Below, in pieces: positions 3,029 through 37,493 of a stretch of 64,000 nt of DNA. The stretch is from the NCBI GenBank assembly GCA_964572515.1, contig CAZNEW010000006.1:33267-97266 (forward strand), written 5' to 3'. This stretch comes from an uncultured Candidatus Obscuribacterales bacterium. Its GTDB lineage: Bacteria > Cyanobacteriota > Vampirovibrionia > Obscuribacterales > Obscuribacteraceae. The stretch's first letter is position 1. Each line of letters opens with the position of its first letter. The notes under the pieces are model-generated. The model was not told the origin of the DNA, did no database searches, and saw only the letters and a list, made by a program, of their open reading frames with translations. A program made the translations under genes and the position numbers.

Positions 3029-3688
3029 TTAGTATTTGACCGAACAGCCATAAGGCTTGGTTTCAGACTCTGTAACCGGCTTGCCGCCCAGTGTTTCATC
3101 AAGTGCTTGCTTGACATAATTTTTGGCAGATGCAATTTCGCTCTGTTCCGTTCCGCGTTTATCGTCGATTGCACCTTGATAAACAATCTTGCCGTCTTTA
3201 CCGATTACAAACATATGAGGAGTTGTTTTGGCACCATACAAGCGACCAACATTTCCATCGGTATCGACAAGAACGGCTGCTGGAGAAGATTTCTTATCTT
3301 CGAATGCTTGAACAAATTCAGCATTGGTGGCATGACCTTGTTTGCCCGGAGCGCTTGAATTGATACAAACCCAAAGCACGCCTTTCTTTTCGTAAGCCTC
3401 TTGCAACTTTTGCATATTGCCAGACTCATAGTGTTTTTTGACAAACGGGCAACCAAAATTGAACCACTCAAGAACTATAATCTTGCCAAGATGGTCTTTG
3501 AGTTTCCACATCTTTCCTTTGATGTCTTTGATTGCAAAGTCAGGCGCTTTCTGTCCAACATCTACATGTGAAATTTCGGCTGCAAAACTAGCATCGCGAT
3601 CTTGCCAAAAGAAGTTGGGTACACATAATGCGGCAGTCAAAAGTGCCAGTGCGACTAACTTCTGATTGATTTTGGTTACCGGGTTCAT
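3029..3688 (-). CDS. secreted thioredoxin-fold (redoxin/TlpA-like) protein with single-Cys CPFV motif
   Basis: Signal-like N-terminus. Redoxin pattern IIVLEWFNFGCPFVKKHY ... TTPHMFVIGKDGKIVYQGAIDD. Confidence 0.7.
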   Translation of the reverse strand: MNPVTKINQKLVALALLTAALCVPNFFWQDRDASFAAEISHVDVGQKAPDFAIKDIKGKMWKLKDHLGKIIVLEWFNFGCPFVKKHYESGNMQKLQEAYEKKGVLWVCINSSAPGKQGHATNAEFVQAFEDKKSSPAAVLVDTDGNVGRLYGAKTTPHMFVIGKDGKIVYQGAIDDKRGTEQSEIASAKNYVKQALDETLGGKPVTESETKPYGCSVKY

Positions 3689-3975: not shown

Positions 3976-4049
<74 letters not shown>

Positions 4050-4061
4050 GTTTCTATTTAG

Positions 4062-4087
4062 TACATCCGTTAACGGTAATGGTTTTT
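4062..4087. repeat. degenerate copy (c) of the GTTAAC-centred palindrome, between the two tRNAs
   Basis: TACATCCGTTAACGGTAATGGTTTTT. The right arm and core are conserved and the left arm is truncated. Confidence 0.6.
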
Positions 4088-4112
4088 CGGTTGGATCTAT
4101 AATAAGAACTGT

Positions 4113-4185
4113 GGGGGATTGGCTCAGTTGGTAGAGCGTCTCGTTTGCACCGAGAAGGTCAGCGGTTCGAATCCGCTATCCTCCA
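4113..4185 (+). tRNA. tRNA-Ala(UGC): tRNA-Ala (anticodon TGC)
   Basis: Acceptor GGGGGAT/ATCCTCC with the G3:U70 wobble (Ala identity element), anticodon loop TTTGCAC, T-arm with GGTTCGAATCC. Confidence 0.95.
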
Positions 4186-4288
4186 AATTTTTAGAACAGA
4201 AAATACAATCATCCTTTCCATAGTCCTTTAGGAGGATATGGAAGAAAACGATATTTGAGAATCTTGTTTCAGCAGGAGAACAAATATC

Positions 4289-4540
4289 GTGGAAGAATGG
4301 GAAAAATTCAGACTTAGATTTTCGAAAGCCGTAAGAGACAGACGAAACGCACTTGGACTTTCACAGGGAGCACTTGCAAAATCGTCTGGATTCAGTCGCT
4401 CTTATATCGCAGATGTTGAGCGCGGGGCACGAAGCATAACGTTGAAAAACGCTTGGCGACTTGCATATTGTTTACAGATTGAACTGGCCGACCTTTTGCC
4501 AACTTCTGAATTAACTTCAGTAGCAGCCCAGTCAGCTTAG
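4289..4540 (+). CDS. XRE-family helix-turn-helix transcriptional regulator
   Basis: HTH_3 pattern LGLSQGALAKSSGFSRSYIADVERGARSITLKNAWRLAYCL. GTG start with AGGAGA about 10 nt upstream. Confidence 0.8.
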   Translation: MEEWEKFRLRFSKAVRDRRNALGLSQGALAKSSGFSRSYIADVERGARSITLKNAWRLAYCLQIELADLLPTSELTSVAAQSA

Positions 4541-4650
4541 TTAAAATTTTGTCAGCAGCGCAGGTCTTCCTGATGAGACTTCTTTCCGGCAAGGTATATT
4601 AGTAATGGCACCAAGGAGTCCATTTTACGGTCGCAACCATTACGGTCTGC

Positions 4651-7059
4651 ATGCCTTCGCAAGCAAAGAATTCAAAGAAGAAATCAACTCGCCAAGAGTT
4701 AAGCAGCGAGCAACTTCGTAAAGTAATCGAAGCATCTCCAAACGGCATCATCATGGTCAATGACCGTGGTGAAATCGTGCTTGTAAATCTGCAAATCGAA
4801 AAATTATTCGGTTACACCCGCGAAAATCTCGTGGGCAAAACCATTGAAATATTGGTGCCTGATTCAGCCAAGGCGATACATCCAAAACAACGCGAAAGCT
4901 TTTTTACAAACCCCAGCACAAGAAGTATGGGTGCTGGTAGAGATTTATTCGGCTTAAAATCGGATGGTTCTTTAATTCCAATTGAAATTGGACTTAATCC
5001 ACTTGACATGCAGGGCGGAAAATTCGTGCTTGCTTCAATAGTCGATATTACTGAGCGAAGAAAGTCAGAACAGGCGCTAATTCAAGCAAAAGAAGAATTA
5101 GAAACCAGAGTGAGCGAGCGCACAAAAGAGCTTAAAAAGGCAAAGGATCAGGCACAGGAAGCCTCGCGACTCAAATCTGAATTTTTAGCCAATATGAGCC
5201 ATGAAATAAGAACACCCATGAATGCTGTAATAGGAATGTGCAATATCCTTTCAAAAACACATCTTGATTCGCGCCAACAACAATACACAGACAATATTCG
5301 CGACGGCGCCAACACTTTGTTGACCATCATCAATGACGTACTCGACTTCAGCAAAATAGAAGCGGGGCATATGGAAATCGAAGCAATCGATTTTGATGTG
5401 GTGCGATTGGTCGAAAGTACTTGCGAAATGCTTGCAGCAGCAGCACGGCACAAAAAACTTTCGGTACTTGCAGAAATTGACGAAGACATTCCATCTCAGC
5501 TAAGAGGGGACCCCGAGCGCCTCAGGCAAATATTAATCAACTTACTTTCAAACGCAATTAAGTTTTCCACTCATGGCAATATCGTTGTAAAAACCAGACT
5601 AGAAAAGGTTCAAGGCTCAAATGCACTGGTCTTTTTCTCTGTTAAAGATGAAGGTATTGGAATAAGCAAAGAGCAATTAGATCGGCTATTCAAACCATTC
5701 GAACAGGCAGACGGTTCTATTAGTCGGCGCTTTGGCGGAACAGGATTGGGTCTTAGCATTTGCAAACGCCTGGTCCAATTGATGAACGGAAACATAGGCG
5801 TAAACAGCACTTCACAAAAAGGCTCAGAGTTTTGGATTCAAGTTCCATTTGAAATTCGATCGGCAAGCAATAAACCATTTCTTCCAGACAGCTTAAGATC
5901 GGCTCGGGTACTGATTGTTGAAGACGATCCTTATGCATCGCAAATTCTAAGCAAATATATTTCTTCCTGGGGGATTCAAAATTCTTGCGCACACACAGCC
6001 AAAGATGCTGTAACAGCCATGAGGCAAGCTTATGTAGAAGAGAAAAAATTCGACATTGTAGTTGTCGATTACATGCTTCCCGACAAAAATGGTATAGAAC
6101 TTGCGCATCAAATTTTTAACGACCCTGCAATTAAAGATGCCAATCTTATTTTGTTGACAGCCTTTGACACCCCAGGCTTGGGCAAGCAAGCTATTGCAAA
6201 TGGTTTCAAAGCTTATTTGACTAAACCAGTCAGACGCTCGAGCTTGCTCGATGCACTGAGCGCTAGCTGGGGCTTCGAGCACCCTATAATCTCGCCCCAA
6301 TCAATAGATGGTGCTGCGGAAGCTCAGTCTAGATTGCCTGACAGAACAGAATTGATCCTGGTAGTCGAAGATTATCCGATTAACCAACAAGTGGCTGAGT
6401 TATACCTTGAACAACTTGGATTCAAGTGCCACATCGCAAATAATGGAATCGAAGCAGTGCATGCAATTAAAAACTACAATTACGCCCTGGTCTTGATGGA
6501 CTGTCAGATGCCAGACATGGACGGCTATGTCGCATCGACAAAAATCAGAGAGCAAGAGGAAAAAGCAAATTTGAAAAAACGAATTCCAATTATTGCTCTT
6601 ACTGCCCACGCGATGGGCGGCGATCGCGAAAAGTGCTTGAACGCCGGAATGGACGATTATCTAGTTAAACCAATTGAGCTTGAGCACTTGCAAACTATGT
6701 TGCAAAAGTGGCTGCCAGAAACAATTCCTTTATATATAGATGTGGTTCGCATAAATTCCAAATATGGCAAGGCCGCCCAAACCTTGCTGGAGCGCTATTT
6801 GAAAGATGCCCCTCCAGTGCTCAAAGAAATTCTTGACAGTTTTCAAGTTGACGATCGCTTGACTTTTCAACGATCTCTGCACGGATTAAAAGGCATAAGC
6901 ACTACAGTTTGCGCCAAAGTCCTCGTTGACCGGTGCGTACAAATTGAAAATGCTTCCTACGATCAAAAATGGAACGAAGTGCGTGAGCAGGTTCGTAAGC
7001 TAGAGACAGAAATGGCAGAAACACTGGCTTTTATCGATTCCAAAAACCTAAACCGTTAA
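4651..7059 (+). CDS. hybrid sensor histidine kinase (PAS - HisKA - HATPase_c - REC - REC - HPt)
   Basis: H-box FLANMSHEIRTPMNAVIG, G-box GGTGLGLSICKRL, two receiver domains (VVVDYMLPDKNG; LMDCQMPDMDG), HPt motif LHGLKGISTTV. The last codons KNLNR-stop lie inside palindrome copy d. Confidence 0.9.
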   Translation: MPSQAKNSKKKSTRQELSSEQLRKVIEASPNGIIMVNDRGEIVLVNLQIEKLFGYTRENLVGKTIEILVPDSAKAIHPKQRESFFTNPSTRSMGAGRDLFGLKSDGSLIPIEIGLNPLDMQGGKFVLASIVDITERRKSEQALIQAKEELETRVSERTKELKKAKDQAQEASRLKSEFLANMSHEIRTPMNAVIGMCNILSKTHLDSRQQQYTDNIRDGANTLLTIINDVLDFSKIEAGHMEIEAIDFDVVRLVESTCEMLAAAARHKKLSVLAEIDEDIPSQLRGDPERLRQILINLLSNAIKFSTHGNIVVKTRLEKVQGSNALVFFSVKDEGIGISKEQLDRLFKPFEQADGSISRRFGGTGLGLSICKRLVQLMNGNIGVNSTSQKGSEFWIQVPFEIRSASNKPFLPDSLRSARVLIVEDDPYASQILSKYISSWGIQNSCAHTAKDAVTAMRQAYVEEKKFDIVVVDYMLPDKNGIELAHQIFNDPAIKDANLILLTAFDTPGLGKQAIANGFKAYLTKPVRRSSLLDALSASWGFEHPIISPQSIDGAAEAQSRLPDRTELILVVEDYPINQQVAELYLEQLGFKCHIANNGIEAVHAIKNYNYALVLMDCQMPDMDGYVASTKIREQEEKANLKKRIPIIALTAHAMGGDREKCLNAGMDDYLVKPIELEHLQTMLQKWLPETIPLYIDVVRINSKYGKAAQTLLERYLKDAPPVLKEILDSFQVDDRLTFQRSLHGLKGISTTVCAKVLVDRCVQIENASYDQKWNEVREQVRKLETEMAETLAFIDSKNLNR

Positions 7060-7070
7060 CGGTTTAGGTT
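7042..7070. repeat. GTTAAC-centred palindromic repeat, copy d (arms CCTAAACCG/CGGTTTAGG)
   Basis: AAAAACCTAAACCGTTAACGGTTTAGGTT. Its central TAA (7057-7059) is the stop codon of the histidine kinase gene. It sits between the kinase and the 23S leader. Confidence 0.85.
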
Positions 7071-7299
7071 CTCCATATAGAGAGGAATATAAATAGGAAT
7101 AAGACTTTCATTGTCAAGATAATACCCAAAACGCACAGCCCGTGCCGAATAAAGATATTGATTACAAGAGAGTTACATATCGGATACAAATAGGTGAAAC
7201 ATGGAGTGGTATCTGATACTATTGTATTTCTGGTGATGCAACACATCTGATTGATGTATGTTTCACCACCGACTGCAAAAGCGGTCGGAAAAAAATTGT

Positions 7300-7347
7300 G
7301 TACCCTGAAAACTGCATATTGAGAATCCGTATCCACATTTATACCAA
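7300..7347 (+). promoter_or_regulatory. 23S rRNA leader strand of the long-range processing stem
   Basis: GTACCCTGAAAACTGCATATTGAGAAT (7300-7326) is complementary to 10454-10480, with 1 mismatch and 1 G:U. TATCCAC and ATACCAA in 7327-7347 pair with 10411-10433. Confidence 0.75.
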
Positions 7348-7430
7348 TGTTTTGGATTGATACAAATTCAATCCGCTTATCCAGATGCACTAAGAGAACT
7401 GTCCTGGTTCGAAGTGACATCCTGGATTTT

Positions 7431-10394
<2,964 letters not shown>

Positions 10395-10410
10395 AATAAA
10401 ACAGATTTAT

Positions 10411-10480
10411 TTGGTATTTAAGTGGATAACCCGAAATTCAATTCGAAATTTCAATTCTCAATGTGCAGTTTTCAGGGCAC
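10411..10480 (+). promoter_or_regulatory. 23S rRNA trailer strand of the processing stem
   Basis: TTGGTATTTAAGTGGATAACCCG and ATTCTCAATGTGCAGTTTTCAGGGCAC are reverse-complementary to leader 7300-7347. Confidence 0.75.
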
Positions 10481-10527
10481 GCAGAGTGATTCTTCACGAA
10501 TCACACGCGCGAGCGACCTGACACCTT

Positions 10528-10644
10528 TCTTGGTGCCAAAGCGTCTGGAACACACCCGTTCCCATTCCGAACACGAAGGTAAAGACGGACAGCAGCGACA
10601 ATACTTGGTGGGAGACTGCCTGGAAAGATAGCCCGGTGCCAGGA
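10528..10644 (+). rRNA. rrf: 5S ribosomal RNA
   Basis: Helix I TCTTGGTGCC/GGTGCCAGGA. Conserved CCCGTTCCCATTCCGAACACGAAG core. About 117 nt. Confidence 0.9.
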
Positions 10645-18327: not shown

Positions 18328-19281
18328 ATGCCCGTAAAAAGCCCCACAAACGAGCTCAAACTTACACGCGTCTATAACCATCCGGTCAAAGATGTCTGGT
18401 CCGCCTGGACAGACCCCGACAAAGCGGCGTATTGGTGGGGACCGCGCGGGTTCAGTATAGAGACTCACAGTAAAGAGCTCAAACCCGATGGACACTGGCA
18501 TTACACAATGTTTGGACCTAACAAGGTCGAATACATAAACAAGACTCACTATTTAGAAGTCGAAGAGTTTAAAAAACTAGTTTACGACCATGGTGGCAAC
18601 GACGAGCAGAAGCCACTCTTTCGAGTAACAGTGCTCTTTTCTGAACACGATGGCAAAACGACCATGGATATGACCATGACTTTGCCCACCCCAGAAGCGG
18701 CTGAACAAACTCGCAAATTCGTCAAAGAAGCCGGCGGCGACTCCACTTGGGACAGACTTGCAGAGTATCTTGAAAAGAAAGCCAGCGACCGAGATTTATT
18801 CGTTCTCAATCGCTCATTCGATGTTTCAATCGAAAAAATGTTTGAAATGTGGACCGAGCCAAAACATCTTGCAAACTGGCTTGCACCAAAAGGATTCGAA
18901 ATGGAATTCTTCCGTTGTGATATCAAACCTGGTGGCAGCAGTTTTTCATGCATGAGCGGTCCTGGCGGCAAAAAAATGTACGGACGCTCCGACTATCTCA
19001 AAGTAGAAAAGCCCAACTTGATTCAGTACACACAACAATTTTGCGACGAAAACGAAAAAGTAACGCGTCATCCCATGGCACCAACATGGCCAGAAACGAT
19101 GCTCACAATCGTAGAACTAACTAAAGAAGATGCTCAGCAAACGCGCCTGACCATTACCTGGGAATGCCACGGCAACACGAGCGTGCCTGAACTAGCAACA
19201 TTCATACAAGCACGCAACGGCATGCACCAAGGCTGGACAGGCTCACTCGACAAACTCGAAGAGTATCTAGCTCAGCAATAA
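18328..19281 (+). CDS. tandem SRPBCC / AHSA1 (Activator of Hsp90 ATPase homolog 1-like) domain protein
   Basis: Two repeats of the AHSA1-type pattern (LTRVYNHPVKDVWSAWTDPDKAAYWWGPRGF; SFDVSIEKMFEMWTEPKHLANWLAPKGF). Confidence 0.75.
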   Translation: MPVKSPTNELKLTRVYNHPVKDVWSAWTDPDKAAYWWGPRGFSIETHSKELKPDGHWHYTMFGPNKVEYINKTHYLEVEEFKKLVYDHGGNDEQKPLFRVTVLFSEHDGKTTMDMTMTLPTPEAAEQTRKFVKEAGGDSTWDRLAEYLEKKASDRDLFVLNRSFDVSIEKMFEMWTEPKHLANWLAPKGFEMEFFRCDIKPGGSSFSCMSGPGGKKMYGRSDYLKVEKPNLIQYTQQFCDENEKVTRHPMAPTWPETMLTIVELTKEDAQQTRLTITWECHGNTSVPELATFIQARNGMHQGWTGSLDKLEEYLAQQ

Positions 19282-19294
19282 TTTCAGCCAAGTC

Positions 19295-19972
19295 TCAACG
19301 ATACTGATTAATCATTTCCTCGAAGCCGCTTTGCTCCATGGAAACTCGACCGTTATACAAGACTTCGTTGCTTCCAGACAAAATCACCAATCGCGGAATT
19401 GAACGTATTTGATATTGTTCAATCAATGGATCGTGTGAATCGAGATCGATTTGTTGGAAAGTAATGTCTCTGAATTTACCGCTATTTTTTGTTGCGTCAA
19501 ACACGGGCGCAAATCTTTTGCAGGGCGGTCACCAATCGGCGTAGAATTCAATTATCTTCTTAGCCTTACGACTAGACGAAACCTGGGACGGAGACCCGCT
19601 CGATGCTGCCTGCCCTGCGGCACCTTGTGACACAGATCCGCCAGAAGTCCGCGCTCCCGAAAGCTGGGAAAGAGCTTGTTGAGCCATTGGACTCAACTTG
19701 CCATCGCGCGAATTAACTACGAACTGATATTCTTGTTTGGCTTGGTCGATATGACCCAGTCTATGCTGACAAAGCCCTATGTAATAGTGAACGTAAGGAT
19801 TGCTTGGACTGCTAGCACTAAACGTTTTGAACATTGACAGTGCCGACTGATATTTTCCGGCTTTGTATTCGGCCACTGCGGATTCAAATGTCATGGGTGC
19901 AGCGCTGGCACTCACCTGACATACAAAGAAAAACGACGCAGCCATCAATAAATTTCGTATTTTTCGAGTCAA
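19295..19972 (-). CDS. secreted TPR + thioredoxin-fold protein with in-frame TGA at the first CXXC position (candidate selenoprotein W-U-P-P-C; alternatively a nonsense pseudogene)
   Basis: ORFs 19529..19972 and 19295..19504 are in the same frame. The joined sequence EFYADW-TGA-PPCKRFAPVFD...IRSIPRLVIL matches the thioredoxin active site and the cis-Pro region. TGA is at 19531-19529. Confidence 0.6.
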
Positions 19973-20078
19973 AGTTTACTCTCCCAAGCGAACCATTCGT
20001 ATTTTAGCCGATTTAATAGTGGTTTTAGCTTAAAACTTGAGGCTTTGTAGAGACCCAGGTTCCGGTTATCATTAGCTT

Positions 20079-20909
20079 ATGGAAAAGCAAAGCGCTGCCA
20101 CAAAATTGTTCAAATCGCCACTGCGTTACCCCGGCGGCAAACAAAAAGCGATTGCTCAAATATCGAAATTTTTGCCAAAAAATGCAGATGAATACCGCGA
20201 GCCTTTAGTTGGCGGAGGTAGCGTTTATTTCCATGCGCGTTCAATTGGTTTTGCTAAATCTTATTGGATCAACGATAAATTCAGAGAACTGATTTCATTC
20301 TGGCGCTCGGTACAAAATCCAAAAGCATGTTTGCGCTTGCAAAAAGAACTGGAGGCTATGCGCGAACAACTAGCTTCGGGCGATGAAATGAAAAGTTTTT
20401 TTGTGGAGGCACGCAAAGAAAATCCCGCAAACGAATATCGAGAAGCGTTGCTCTTTTTCTTTTTCAATCGTGTCACATTCTCGGGTACCACTCGCGCAGG
20501 CGGTTTTTCCAAACTGGCTAGTCAACGTCGTTTTACCGCATCATCAATCGAGCGCCTTACACCAATGCCTCTTGCTTTAGATGGAACACAAATTACTAAT
20601 TTTGGCTTTGAAGAAGTAATTCGCCACCCCGGACAAAATGTTTTCATTTTTATAGACCCACCTTATTACACAGCATCTCGTTTATATGGACCGGGAGGCA
20701 GTCTTCACGAGTTCGATCACGAATTGCTGGCAGACTGTTTGAAACAAACACAACACAAATTTTTGATCACATACGACGACTGCAATGAAATTCGCAAGCT
20801 CTATCGCTGGGCAAAAATCCAGAAGTGGTCCTTGCAATACGGCATGAATAACTGCAATACAGAACACACAAGTAAAATTGGCTCTGAAATTTTTATTTCG
20901 AACTACTAA
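20079..20909 (+). CDS. D12-class (Dam-family) N6-adenine DNA methyltransferase, orphan
   Basis: N-terminal PLRYPGGK motif and catalytic FIDPPYY (DPPY). No restriction enzyme candidate is adjacent. Confidence 0.8.
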   Translation: MEKQSAATKLFKSPLRYPGGKQKAIAQISKFLPKNADEYREPLVGGGSVYFHARSIGFAKSYWINDKFRELISFWRSVQNPKACLRLQKELEAMREQLASGDEMKSFFVEARKENPANEYREALLFFFFNRVTFSGTTRAGGFSKLASQRRFTASSIERLTPMPLALDGTQITNFGFEEVIRHPGQNVFIFIDPPYYTASRLYGPGGSLHEFDHELLADCLKQTQHKFLITYDDCNEIRKLYRWAKIQKWSLQYGMNNCNTEHTSKIGSEIFISNY

Positions 20910-33993: not shown

Positions 33994-34806
33994 TTATGGT
34001 GAAAACAGCTGACAAACGCTGATGCCACCTTTGGCATCATAAACTATTCCGATTCCAATAGACTGACCTGTGTTATCTAAAATGTTCTTTTTGTGTCCAG
34101 GTGAGTTCATCAAATCTTTGTCAGCCATTTCAACCAATACCGGACCCGGCAGATTGAAAATTGTGTATGCAATATTTTCACGCACCCAGCCGTTGAATCC
34201 ACCCGCCTTGGCTCTGTCGCGCGGGTCTTCTCCACTAGGATTTACGTGGTCAAAAAATCTACGCTTAATCATATCTGCTGCGTGTCCACGCGCAATGGTG
34301 GCAAGAGTTGAGTCTTGCGAAAGAGAACCCAGTCCCGCATCTTTTCTATGCTTATTCACTAGCGAGACCATATAGCTTTCAAGCTCGCCAGTATTAGCTC
34401 GACGCGCACCAGTTGCAACGCCACCACCCATTGGAGGTGAACCACCATGACTATCATGACCTCCACGGCTTGAACTAAGAGTGGGTCTAACCGATTGATA
34501 GGCCGGCGGCGCTGCTTTCAATGCCTTGAAATTTCTTACTTGCTGAGCAAGGGACGAAGTCAAACTGCTTAAGCGTTTGCCGATGTCCTCTTCGCTTTTA
34601 CCAGCCTTGACGTCGCTTTCAATATCTGCAAGAGCCTTCTCATAAGGCGTGGTGCCAACCCCAGCTTTTTTGGCTTTTACTAAATAATCATACACTTGCT
34701 TTCGTTTTTCAAATTCAGGTCCGGGTGCTACGGCGTCTTGCGCCAACGAAACGCTGGCGCTGAAAATCGAGGCTACAATTATGAGAGTTTTTAGAGTCGA
34801 TTTCAT
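33994..34806 (-). CDS. secreted CAP/SCP (YkwD-like) domain protein
   Basis: Signal peptide. CAP motifs ARGHAADMIKRRFFDHVNP...ENIAY...MNSPGHKKNILD...IGIGIVYD. Confidence 0.8.
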   Translation of the reverse strand: MKSTLKTLIIVASIFSASVSLAQDAVAPGPEFEKRKQVYDYLVKAKKAGVGTTPYEKALADIESDVKAGKSEEDIGKRLSSLTSSLAQQVRNFKALKAAPPAYQSVRPTLSSSRGGHDSHGGSPPMGGGVATGARRANTGELESYMVSLVNKHRKDAGLGSLSQDSTLATIARGHAADMIKRRFFDHVNPSGEDPRDRAKAGGFNGWVRENIAYTIFNLPGPVLVEMADKDLMNSPGHKKNILDNTGQSIGIGIVYDAKGGISVCQLFSP

Positions 34807-34867: not shown

Positions 34868-36715
34868 ATGTATTCAAGTATCTCGTTTTTGCGCTGCACC
34901 GTAACTGTTTGCTCGATTATCCTTGCAACAACTTTCGGAGCAGCAGTAGCAAAAGCCAGCACCATCACGAACGAGACCGAAGTACAAACCAAGTCATTAC
35001 CGCAATCAGTCACCAATTTAGACTTGTGCACCCTCGCCTACCAACTCTATCACCAGTCTTTATGCTTGCCACTAGATCCCTGGTACGACATGATGTCCCG
35101 CGTGGGCAGCGACCGTCGCATCAATATTTGCAAATTCACTCACGACTATGCCCAAAATTTAGGCGGATACTATAGCGGACCTAATGCTGCCAGAGGTTTT
35201 GGCGCAAGCAATCGCAATCTCGATCCCATTCTTTCAAATTATAAATATATCGACGCCAAGCTTCCAACGTTTAATCGAGATGGCGAGATATTTTTAGCAC
35301 TTCAAGCGCCGACTTATATCACCCAAAATATCAAAACAATTGAGGGCATCAGATACAGGTCAAAACCAACAAGTTATCCTCACAACGATACAGAAAAATT
35401 CGCAATTCGCCAATATCCAAGCGGCGAAGACCACATCGTAGTATTTGAGGGTGGAACAGGAAATACTGGCATTACAGGTGGTGCACAAGCTACAGATCCA
35501 TCCTGGAGCCTGATGGGCTTTGTGATGATGAAAAAGACACTAGCCGGCTACGATGCCCATATTGTTTTCCGCGGTAGCCGGAGCGGAGCGTCGCTATTAA
35601 AGACAGTTTGGAGAGCACAAAATTTCATTGGCGAACCTAAAGGCAATCCCGACTGGATAACCGATTTGCGCGGCATGAAACAAGTGGAGCATCCTCTTAT
35701 TAGCAAAGTTGGCAAAGTTACTCAAGGATTTTCAGAGTCATTACCTACTATGCTTGGAACAATTACAGCATGCTGCAAATATCTCGAACAGACTTATGGT
35801 GCTCCTCAAAATATTTATGTCACTGGGCATAGTTTAGGAGCAGGGCTTGCCACACAATTTGTAAGCGCAGTAATGCAGGGCAATTATGGTGAAGAGCTCA
35901 AGCAAGAAGTAAAAACCTGGCCATGGCAGAATACAACTCTCATTGCTTATGCCCAACCAATCCCTGGCGATACTACCTGGGCATCTAACTTCGACAAACT
36001 CACTCCCACAGCTGAGCACTACTGGGTAGAAGGAGACAGTGTTGTCGAGGCGACAGATGGTCGTATCGTCGGCATGATTATAGATAAAGGCGCACACAGC
36101 GGCGTGCAAAAGAAACTTGCGATGGTTTCTGAATGCTCAGATAATCCACACGAAGTTTTTGTAATCCGAGCCGCACTTATTCGGGATTTGCTTGCTAAAA
36201 CTGTCAGTCTTGGCTCTCTGGCTGAAACTAAGGAAAATAACTGGGGTTATTATGAGAACTTTTCCAAAATGCTCAAAGGACAACCCAAGAACTATGTAAT
36301 ACCAAATACAGTGGCTTGCCAATTCGTAACGGATCAAAATCTTCGTCCTATCTTACAAAACTGCGACTTCAGCGCCAATTTCGAAAACTGGCTTGAACAG
36401 TCGTACGCCAGAATGATAGTAGAAAAAAGCAGCTATATCGGTCCAAAATTTCAAAGTACTTTGGATGAGCGAAAAAAAACCGTTCTCGACATTATCGCCA
36501 AGATGAAAGAGGCTTCGCCGAACGACAACCTTCAAGCATTAGGGAATTTGGAAAACGACAATAAACTCGTTGATGATACTCTTGGACTGAGTAATGAAGA
36601 ACAATGGATTTACTGCGGTATGATTCTTTCTCGCATGCAAAATTCGAGCTTGACTCTAAACAATCTAGAGTCAAACTCAATCATTAATACATGTCTGGAT
36701 TCGAAGTTCGAGTAG
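34868..36715 (+). CDS. secreted class 3 lipase-domain protein with long C-terminal extension
   Basis: Signal-like N-terminus. Nucleophile elbow VTGHSLGAGLATQF (GxSxG) in a Lipase_3-like context. Confidence 0.75.
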   Translation: MYSSISFLRCTVTVCSIILATTFGAAVAKASTITNETEVQTKSLPQSVTNLDLCTLAYQLYHQSLCLPLDPWYDMMSRVGSDRRINICKFTHDYAQNLGGYYSGPNAARGFGASNRNLDPILSNYKYIDAKLPTFNRDGEIFLALQAPTYITQNIKTIEGIRYRSKPTSYPHNDTEKFAIRQYPSGEDHIVVFEGGTGNTGITGGAQATDPSWSLMGFVMMKKTLAGYDAHIVFRGSRSGASLLKTVWRAQNFIGEPKGNPDWITDLRGMKQVEHPLISKVGKVTQGFSESLPTMLGTITACCKYLEQTYGAPQNIYVTGHSLGAGLATQFVSAVMQGNYGEELKQEVKTWPWQNTTLIAYAQPIPGDTTWASNFDKLTPTAEHYWVEGDSVVEATDGRIVGMIIDKGAHSGVQKKLAMVSECSDNPHEVFVIRAALIRDLLAKTVSLGSLAETKENNWGYYENFSKMLKGQPKNYVIPNTVACQFVTDQNLRPILQNCDFSANFENWLEQSYARMIVEKSSYIGPKFQSTLDERKKTVLDIIAKMKEASPNDNLQALGNLENDNKLVDDTLGLSNEEQWIYCGMILSRMQNSSLTLNNLESNSIINTCLDSKFE

Positions 36716-36719
36716 ATGA

Positions 36720-37493
36720 CTACTTGCCAAAAAGCTGACAAACTCTCAGCTGCCAGGTAACTGGATCGTACGCAATTCCAATTCCAACCACTTTTAGTGT
36801 TGGGTCAAGAATATTGGCTTTATGCCCTGGTGACTGCATTAAACGCTCATCTGCAGCTTCCACTTCCAAAATACCATTGCCACCCATTGCAGTTCGCGCG
36901 ATATTTTCACGAACGCCATTTTTATAGCCAGCTTTCTGCGCTCGTTTGAATCCGTCCAATCCATCTGGATTGGTGTGGTCGAAAAACTTGCGTTTAATCA
37001 TGTCATCTGCGTGTTCGCGAGCACATCGTGCAAGAGTCCCGTCAGTACCAATCGTTGGAATGCCATTTTCTTTTCTATGCTTATTCAAAAGAGTGAGCAT
37101 ATAGCTTTCCAATTGCGACACTGGAATTTGCTTTTTTGACTTCTTGAGCTTCTTCAAATTGGCAGGATCAATTGAGGAGCCCATACCAATGCCAGATGCC
37201 TTAATCGTTTTACGATTTTGCACTTGCTCGCTCAAAGCCCTGGTAAGTCTTACAATCTGGCTTTGTATTTCTGTCTCGGCTACACCACTTTTGACATCTT
37301 CTTCTATTTTGGCCAAAGCCGTGTCGTAAGGACCAGTTCCAAAGCCAGTCGCACGAGCTTTTTCCAAATAAGTTTTTAGCTGTTGACGCTTCTCAGCACA
37401 AGGTCCGGGATTTACTTCAGCCCAAACTGGAATGCTCTGAGTCAAGAAAGCAACGGACAAAAAACTGAATAATGGCAAATGACGAGTCTTCAT
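36720..37493 (-). CDS. secreted CAP/SCP (YkwD-like) domain protein, paralog of 33994..34806
   Basis: Similar over the full length to 33994..34806 (EKRQQLKTYLEKARATGFGTGPYDTALAKIEEDVKSG vs EKRKQVYDYLVKAKKAGVGTTPYEKALADIESDVKAG; MQSPGHKANILD). Confidence 0.8.
   Translation of the reverse strand: MKTRHLPLFSFLSVAFLTQSIPVWAEVNPGPCAEKRQQLKTYLEKARATGFGTGPYDTALAKIEEDVKSGVAETEIQSQIVRLTRALSEQVQNRKTIKASGIGMGSSIDPANLKKLKKSKKQIPVSQLESYMLTLLNKHRKENGIPTIGTDGTLARCAREHADDMIKRKFFDHTNPDGLDGFKRAQKAGYKNGVRENIARTAMGGNGILEVEAADERLMQSPGHKANILDPTLKVVGIGIAYDPVTWQLRVCQLFGK

Follow-up and report, generated by a model that had tools for sequence, protein, structure and literature searches.

A selenoprotein thioredoxin was reportedly characterized experimentally in Treponema denticola by Kim et al. 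in 2015. The thioredoxin family (PF00085) with a UxxC motif, in which U stands for selenocysteine (Sec), is an established and experimentally verified selenoprotein family, and a thioredoxin-like fold is found in most prokaryotic selenoproteins (PMC13188914, PMC9312934). Predicted extracytoplasmic selenoproteins with UxxC comprise the thiol:disulfide interchange protein (PF13098), DsbA-like and DsbG-like proteins, and UGC-containing TlpA (PMC9312934, PMC13188914). Here, we analyzed 64,000 nucleotides from an uncultured Candidatus Obscuribacterales bacterium (GenBank assembly GCA_964572515.1, contig CAZNEW010000006.1, positions 33,267 to 97,266 of the forward strand; this whole stretch is termed the window below), in which a minus-strand gene for a thioredoxin-fold protein is interrupted by an in-frame TGA at 19531-19529. 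We regard it as very probable that this is a genuine selenoprotein gene, one gene rather than two, which encodes an exported protein of 225 residues with selenium incorporation predicted at residue 148. Three hallmarks of a bacterial selenoprotein gene, namely a Sec/Cys pair among homologues, a conserved TGA, and a frame that continues beyond it, were all found for this gene.

The window protein belongs to the same Pfam family as the selenoprotein thioredoxin of T. denticola, and Sec, predicted in the former, takes the place of the N-terminal nucleophilic Cys of a WCGPC-type motif in both. The window protein would also share the bacterial-type decoding, with a selenocysteine insertion sequence (SECIS) located within the coding region just 3' of UGA. 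In contrast to the T. denticola protein, the window protein is not a free cytoplasmic thioredoxin but bears a signal peptide, an N-terminal tetratricopeptide repeat (TPR) module, and a long linker; its motif is UPPC, while UGPC, UAPC, URPC, UGAC, and others occur in its relatives, and the lineage concerned is Obscuribacterales. The predicted export and the Sec in place of the first Cys of CXXC are shared with the extracytoplasmic UxxC selenoproteins, as is the logic of combining Sec/Cys pairs with a SECIS. However, the window protein is of another Pfam subfamily, and none of the extracytoplasmic selenoproteins has been described with a TPR fusion. The recoding proposed here follows the standard bacterial mechanism, and thioredoxin-fold selenoproteins with UxxC are the commonest kind; what is new, and well supported, is an exported TPR-linker-thioredoxin selenoprotein subfamily of Obscuribacterales in which Sec is nearly fixed. 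One survey recorded a Sec residue in a single Candidatus Melainabacteria protein, PWT95605.1 (PMC9529120). Our literature searches found no paper linking Obscuribacter with selenocysteine, and the part of the literature on Melainabacteria and selenoproteins that was accessible to the searches held no description of an exported TPR-thioredoxin family.

The minus-strand open reading frame (ORF) 19972..19529, which starts with TTG and encodes 147 amino acids, has ...KKIIEFYADW as its last residues before the TGA. Beyond it, the frame continues as PPCKRFAPVFDA...NQYR and remains open for 77 codons up to a second TGA at 19297-19295; with the region of the cis-Pro loop included, the post-TGA frame is PPCKRFAPVFDATKNSGKF...IRSIPRLVIL...NQYR. 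A preliminary description of the window, made from the sequence alone, had noted this ORF with its signal peptide, TPR-like region, and Ser/Gly-rich linker, as well as the 77 open codons, and both are confirmed to the exact codon count. By our estimate, the chance of a 77-codon open frame after a stop is ~0.03 when taken alone; it is the conservation across relatives (see below) that puts the feature far beyond chance. The same description had placed the TGA at the first Cys of CXXC and had pointed to a cis-Pro region downstream, and the alignments to solved structures agree on both points. When the Protein Data Bank (PDB) was searched with phmmer, 'FYADW-U-PPCKRFAP' of the window protein was aligned with 'FYAPW-C-GHCKQFAP' of the a-domains of protein disulfide isomerases (PDI), and also with thioredoxins, while 'IRSIPRL' (SIPR) fell on the G(Y/I)PT cis-Pro loop.

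We compared the window with the DNA of relatives, i.e., the loci of the homologues retrieved by a protein search plus 27 species-representative genome loci carrying the family (loci and proteins are designated by L and P numbers, respectively). Except for a few differently labelled contigs of metagenome-assembled genomes (MAGs), these loci were labelled as Obscuribacterales, Melainabacteria, or 'Cyanobacteria bacterium'. TGA was found at the identical codon in 26 of the 27 species-representative genomes and in at least 31 genes, and the proteins of the TGA-bearing relatives diverged down to about 30-45% identity. Among the 17 homologues from the protein search, 13 (144-153 amino acids, 45-99% identical) stop at exactly ...(E/D)FYADW. 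The carriers of the TGA form include a closed chromosome (CP064963.1; L008) and an uncultured Candidatus Obscuribacterales MAG (L007), the latter bearing 95% nucleotide identity to the window (~76% for other relatives) and the same TGA. The assemblies GCA_033763035.1, GCA_964606665.1, and CAZFKB01 (the last 95% identical to the window) likewise carry the TGA form, whereas JAFKGK01, the genome of locus L031, has Cys forms only. To the question raised at the outset, i.e., whether orthologues carry Cys or TGA at this codon, the alignment answers with TGA in nearly all genomes and few Cys forms: Cys was detected in L006b (TGT), L017b (TGC), and L031a/b (TGT), and in the proteins P0014 and P0004.

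The region downstream of the TGA is under strong purifying selection in the read-through frame. Over the 77 post-TGA codons, the window and L007 are separated by 10 synonymous and 0 non-synonymous codon differences; the corresponding counts are 37 and 5 against L006a, in which case third codon positions hold 39 of the 47 nucleotide differences, and 35 and 7 against L001a. The orthologues keep the same read-through frame past the TGA, and the residues x-P-C-K-x-F-A-P directly after it are conserved at the protein level. We take this pattern to show that translation runs on in frame beyond the UGA.

A SECIS-like hairpin follows the UGA (Table 1), with both arms, UUGCG and CGCAA, at the coordinates and the 16-nt distance given in the preliminary description. 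A 16-nt spacer separates the UGA from a stem of 5 bp, to which a C-G pair and an A bulge are added, and the 7-nt loop, CGUGUUU, contains G-U; the stem reaches the full 7 bp in L021 and L026. We examined this hairpin in a gap-free alignment of 30 TGA-containing sequences, which covers the TGA together with 12 nt on its 5' side and 57 nt on its 3' side. In the helix formed by columns 32-38 with columns 46-52, 83.7% of the cells were paired, versus 16-53% when the partners were slid by 1-3 columns. At the pair 33-51, 21 distinct sequences have U-A and seven have C-G, and both of its positions are synonymous third positions (Phe and Ala). The pair 36-48 is G-C in 22 sequences, C-G in four, and U-A in one, a synonymous change of Ala being coupled here to a change between Asp and Glu. 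None of 500 shuffles matched the covariation score of the helix, RNAalifold predicted the same helix with no structure supplied, and the U-G wobbles at the pair 32-52 are compatible with the sense strand only. Synonymous change is suppressed as well: the codons +8 to +11 (CCC-GTG-TTT-GAC) showed 0 bits of synonymous entropy in the 28 sequences with those amino acids, whereas each of the four possible codons occurs for the invariant residues Pro +2 and Ala -3 (about 1.75-1.8 bits). Covariation and suppressed synonymous change thus back the very helix that had been proposed from the window sequence.

The hairpin appeared to be specific to this family. We searched the window and ~0.95 Mb of related loci on both strands for the loop with at least four of five complementary flanking bases, and the pattern occurred 40 times in ~1 Mb, in all cases 19 nt from the first base of the TGA of the family. 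Four Cys-form genes (L006b, L017b, and L031a/b) encode the same F-A-P-(V/I)-(F/Y) peptide by other synonymous codons, with which the helix is impossible, and the second TGA, 77 codons on, is followed by no such hairpin. The minimal fdhF element is said to be 17 nt from work of the Bock laboratory, and the window hairpin is of comparable size; the minimal SECIS element of E. coli has an 11-nt spacer to the base of the stem. The window hairpin and the SECIS of the E. coli fdhF type are both small stem-loops inside the ORF; they follow UGA at a short, fixed distance and have G(U) in the apical loop. Unlike the fdhF SECIS, the spacer is 16 nt, the 7-nt loop is accompanied by an A bulge, and neither a conserved lower stem nor a match in Rfam was found. 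A bacterial SECIS is marked by a hairpin whose loop contains G and whose distance from UGA is fixed (PMC1088965). The conserved hairpin of the window, being a stem-loop 3' of UGA with a small apical loop containing G, corresponds to that description and is a putative binding site of SelB.

In the relatives represented by L001, L003, L006, L008, L010, L011, L017, L030, and L031, the gene occurs as tandem paralogues, A (..EFYADWU) and B (..DFYADWU), and the TGA and the same hairpin are usually found in both. The second tandem copy has Cys in L006 and L017, and both copies have Cys in L031. The window possesses a single copy, copy A, of which the stop is separated from an AHSA1 gene by 13 nt; likewise, only copy A was found in L007. 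A second TGA copy in L030 (9512-10003) is devoid of TPR and consists of a hydrophobic N-terminus and a thioredoxin domain with a U-M-S-C motif. The hairpin of this TPR-less copy is nevertheless identical, from which it seems that the thioredoxin module moves together with its SECIS. Separately, we note that the contigs L025, L027, L029, and L030, which carry the gene and the hairpin, come from MAGs labelled as Bryobacterales, Oculatellaceae cyanobacterium, Proteobacteria, and Planktothrix; these labels may reflect mis-binning or mis-classification.

Several observations weigh against the interpretation of the window gene as a selenoprotein gene. The hairpin is weak (-3.9 kcal/mol, z ~0 relative to shuffles); its stability gives no support, and the case for it rests on the comparative evidence. 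In several sequences, that of the window included, the structure of minimum free energy is a competing hairpin, UGCAAA/UUUGCG. Neither a scan of the whole window at gathering thresholds nor a permissive scan (E<=10) of 19250-20050 gave an Rfam match to a SECIS or any other RNA family at the site. The helix is not retained in L032 and L033, the two TGA forms that diverge most, and the compensatory changes described above probably trace to about three independent events. As for the machinery, ARAGORN detected no tRNA-Sec in the window or in 31 related loci, and tblastn with SelA, SelB, and SelD of E. coli (NC_000913.3) gave no homologue when run against the window and ~0.95 Mb of related loci, the only matches being EF-Tu-like ones in unrelated Patescibacteria loci. 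Cyanobacteria are among the lineages apparently without Sec in early genome surveys (PMC9312934). No functional clue comes from the genes neighboring the window gene, and neither a redox donor nor a partner is apparent among them; the substrate and redox partner considered below are conjectural.

Some further observations belong beside these. Considered as a conserved element in its own right, the competing hairpin (columns 22-27/31-36) was rejected: it shows no compensatory change, behaves like the shuffles, and is broken in 7-8 sequences. In L033 (10447-10510), a CCCGUGU loop-like motif is kept with a different short stem, and in L032 (10447-10510) a GGACCG/CGGUCC hairpin begins right after the UGA; the two structures may represent alternative solutions to a SECIS. 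A database search with E. coli SelA returned enterobacterial sequences for all of the best 120 matches and is uninformative on Obscuribacterales.

Four other explanations of the TGA deserve consideration. The in-frame stop would by default be read as a recent nonsense mutation, TGY to TGA in this very genome, which has left a dead thioredoxin domain; public annotation, which ends the gene at the TGA, fits this idea, and the preliminary description had kept it as its alternative. Nevertheless, the same TGA in 26 of the 27 species-level genomes and in both tandem paralogues, together with the strong purifying selection on the downstream frame (37 synonymous versus five non-synonymous differences), contradicts a recent mutation, and we consider a pseudogene refuted for practical purposes. 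An error of sequencing or assembly at the TGA codon of the window deserves equally little credence, since the TGA is present in independent assemblies from many studies and platforms, including the closed long-read chromosome, and in L007, which is 95% identical to the window. Alternatively, the TGA may be decoded without Sec, either under an alternative code (4 or 25), in which TGA stands for Trp or Gly, or by read-through with a near-cognate tRNA, with the hairpin as a generic stimulator and W, C, or G at position 148. Some automatic gene calls, indeed, translate the TGA as W (the database entries P0001 and P0003), the weak hairpin fits none of the curated SECIS models, and no Sec machinery was found in the window and the ~0.95 Mb of related loci covered. 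However, the translation of P0001 also passes the real terminal TGA of the gene into unconserved sequence, and the W in P0001 and P0003 is for this reason an artefact of gene calling under code 4. Among the 47 long ORFs in the window, 24 are ended by TAA, 16 by TAG, and seven by TGA, as had been anticipated from the first inspection, and none of the other long ORFs of the 64-kb window needs read-through of TGA. Because TGA ends seven of 47 ORFs, including the gene in question, and no other read-through is needed, the code is standard and the recoding site-specific. Moreover, the homologous residue is the Cys of the catalytic CXXC, where Trp or Gly would inactivate the enzyme, and a G-containing loop at a fixed distance is what marks a bacterial SECIS. 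We therefore rate decoding without Sec as highly improbable.

The remaining explanation takes the TGA as a true, conserved stop with two products, a 147-residue exported TPR protein and a thioredoxin-like region translated separately, either through re-initiation or as the annotated 69-residue GTG ORF, or else with the downstream region acting mainly as an element of the mRNA. This is how GenBank arranges the relatives, with a TPR protein followed by a 69-residue hypothetical protein. Some truncated product is also to be expected, since termination competes with Sec insertion in known systems (PMC4513850). On the other hand, the only internal start candidate is the GTG of the annotated 69-residue ORF, and the conserved xPC-K-x-F-A-P directly after the TGA lies upstream of it, so that translation of the downstream piece alone does not explain the pattern. 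Neither a signal peptide nor the first beta-strand would be present in the 69-residue fragment, and both residues of the active site would be missing as well; the Cys homologues, of the same architecture, are each encoded by one uninterrupted ORF. Two separate products thus appear very unlikely, and we retain the single selenoprotein gene as the preferred explanation.

The predicted product combines a signal peptide, a TPR-like domain, a flexible linker, and a short thioredoxin-fold domain (Table 1), an order that is backed by Pfam and by an AlphaFold model of P0004, a Cys paralogue with 45% identity to the window protein and the same architecture. The signal peptide shows neither a twin-Arg motif nor a lipobox, the same pattern recurs in the homologues, and the corresponding part of the P0004 model has a low predicted local distance difference test score (pLDDT). 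For the TPR-like region, Pfam TPR_19, TPR_6, and TPR_16 gave weak matches, and NCBIfam indicated weak similarity to the TPR domains of YbgF, BamD, and LcrH. The P0004 model comprises five helices (two TPR repeats and a cap) with pLDDT >90, followed by a disordered linker; the length and sequence of the linker vary among homologues. The thioredoxin domain of the model (pLDDT >90) consists of, among others, a strand at 136-143, WCGPC, and a helix at 148-161, with the motif at the N-terminus of the first helix. A Foldseek search of the PDB with the P0004 model returned thioredoxins as the top matches (TM-score normalized to the target, 0.7-0.9).

With U written as C, the window protein scored 61.7 bits (E = 7e-17) over residues 135-208 against Pfam Thioredoxin PF00085, for which the cut-off is 23.5. 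In contrast, the TrxA equivalog TIGR01068 scored 59.7 bits versus a cut-off of 96.8 and was matched at profile positions 10-83 only, with the N-terminal beta-alpha unit missing. Thus, the window protein is a member of PF00085 with a thioredoxin fold but is not an orthologue of TrxA. The scores for Redoxin of Pfam (17.5 bits versus 26.6) and TlpA NF047696 (20.7 versus 230) fell short of the cut-offs, as did those for PF13098 and PF13905, and no NCBIfam model, including selenoprotein-specific ones, reached its cut-off for the window protein. Although not a member, the window protein may work like the redoxins of the TlpA/ResA/CcmG type. In the relatives, GP, PP, AP, RP, KP, GA, AA, GT, and MS are found between U and C.

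The union of a thioredoxin fold and a TPR module is shared with CnoX/YbbN (COG3118) and plant TDX. CnoX is cytoplasmic and has the thioredoxin domain first, followed by C-terminal TPRs, with an SxxC motif in E. coli, while plant TDX has the TPR-then-thioredoxin order. The window protein differs from CnoX/YbbN in the predicted export, in the order of signal peptide, TPR, linker, and thioredoxin, and in Sec; at the sequence level, no membership of the window protein in CnoX/YbbN or TDX was found. Poplar thioredoxin h1, a CPPC variant (PDB 1ti3), shares x-P-P-C with the window protein and is among the best PDB matches in sequence and fold, but it is a eukaryotic cytosolic Cys protein, the resemblance is at the level of the motif only, and most relatives of the window protein have UGPC.

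We propose that the hairpin 16 nt past the UGA for residue 148 would recruit SelB-GTP with Sec-tRNA(Sec), and that Sec would be inserted there instead of termination, while the second TGA, 77 codons later and without the hairpin, would act as the real stop. The product would probably be periplasmic, given the signal peptide of the secretory (Sec) pathway type. Its most likely role would be that of a reducing, thioredoxin-like thiol:disulfide oxidoreductase in the envelope. In such an enzyme, the selenolate of U148 would attack a disulfide or sulfenate of the substrate, and the resulting selenenylsulfide would be resolved by Cys151. The TPR module would dock the partner or substrate, and re-reduction would depend on a membrane electron donor of the DsbD/CcdA type. 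The involvement of SelB and tRNA(Sec) and the reducing direction are presumed, and the role as an envelope reductase is less certain than the status as a selenoprotein.

Table 1. Features of the predicted selenoprotein gene in the window, and tandem paralogues in related loci.
Feature	Coordinates	Strand	Remarks
Complete predicted selenoprotein gene	19972..19295	minus	225 codons including Sec148; TTG start 19972-19970; true stop TGA 19297-19295
Shine-Dalgarno-like GGGAGAG	19981..19987	minus	Located 8 nt before the TTG start; seen in the sequence itself; putative function
Signal peptide, residues 1-24	19901..19972	minus	K/R-rich n-region; hydrophobic stretch LLMAASFFFV; A-S-A|A signal peptidase I site; cleavage and export predicted
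TPR-like helical domain, residues ~29-105	19658..19888	minus	Two TPR repeats and a capping helix
Ser/Gly/Ala-rich flexible linker, residues ~106-135	19568..19657	minus	Composition from the translation; pLDDT <50 in the P0004 model
Short thioredoxin-fold domain, residues 136-225	19298..19567	minus	beta-alpha-beta-alpha-beta-beta-alpha; W-U-P-P-C; cis-Pro loop S-I-P(193)-R
In-frame TGA, proposed Sec148	19529..19531	minus	Position of the nucleophilic first Cys of CXXC
TGC, Cys151	19520..19522	minus	Resolving Cys of UxxC; invariant across all homologues
SECIS-like hairpin	19492..19512	minus	Starts 16 nt 3' of UGA; 5' arm UUGCG 19512-19508, 3' arm CGCAA 19496-19492
Possible extra pair in the hairpin	C(19506/7)-G(19498)		Leaves the loop CGUGUUU 19505-19499
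Tandem paralogues, L001	10692-11366		
Tandem paralogues, L003	5695-6177		
Tandem paralogues, L006	10706-11380		

Synteny around the gene is conserved, with a divergent gene for a Dam-type D12 methyltransferase (20079-20909) on one side and a convergent AHSA1/SRPBCC gene (18328-19281) on the other; an acyltransferase, GNAT, Usp, GlnRS, and several TPR proteins are encoded further out. No DsbD/CcdA was found among the window ORFs scanned against Pfam, which were those outside 39.7-63.8 kb. An AhpC/TSA-Redoxin ORF of 219 amino acids with an uninterrupted frame, a further gene of the thiol peroxidase/redoxin type, lies at 3029-3688 on the minus strand, immediately upstream of the tRNA-Ile gene. 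The rRNA region (3976-10644) is unusual in its arrangement and contains tRNA-Ile and tRNA-Ala (3976-4186), 23S rRNA (7431-10396), and 5S rRNA (10529-10644), and an ORF for an 802-residue hybrid sensor histidine kinase (4651..7059; PAS-HisKA-HATPase-2xREC-Hpt) separates the two tRNA genes from the 23S and 5S rRNA genes. No 16S rRNA was detected anywhere in the window, and minus-strand protein genes lie upstream of tRNA-Ile. Elsewhere, two ORFs for CAP/cysteine-rich secretory proteins (33994..34806 and 36720..37493, both minus) flank a class-3 lipase ORF (34868..36715, plus).

In public annotation, the genes of the relatives are split or truncated. GenBank divides them into a 'tetratricopeptide repeat protein' (MDX2107980.1, MCW5824416.1, and QQR56712.1) and a 69-residue 'hypothetical protein' (MCW5824417.1), and MBP7861179.1 is also among the entries affected. 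The truncated relatives are labelled by the Joint Genome Institute (JGI) as 'thioredoxin-like negative regulator of GroEL' (COG3118) or 'predicted Zn-dependent protease', and some gene calls on short contigs render the TGA as Trp. Altogether, dozens of GenBank entries split this gene, and they should be merged.

To a specialist, the finding would be useful rather than startling. In most bacterial selenoprotein families, Sec is a rare variant of a Cys protein. In the TPR-thioredoxin family, Sec is nearly fixed across the genomes surveyed and often occurs in two tandem copies. A tentative extension, which we ourselves hold to be doubtful, is that Sec decoding is a conserved and probably vertically inherited trait of Obscuribacterales, a non-photosynthetic sister lineage in a phylum that has long been recorded as without Sec, with the exported TPR-thioredoxin as its signature selenoprotein. 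If this were true, the UGA would double as a switch that responds to selenium: with little selenium, a secreted protein with the TPR module only would be made, and with a sufficient supply, a selenoenzyme tethered to the TPR module. The window gene itself implies the use of selenocysteine in Obscuribacterales, a neglected group of basal, non-photosynthetic bacteria related to Cyanobacteria and common in soil and activated sludge. An extracytoplasmic thioredoxin fold with Sec, tethered to a TPR docking module, would provide a case for studying why Sec is used over Cys in an oxidizing compartment.

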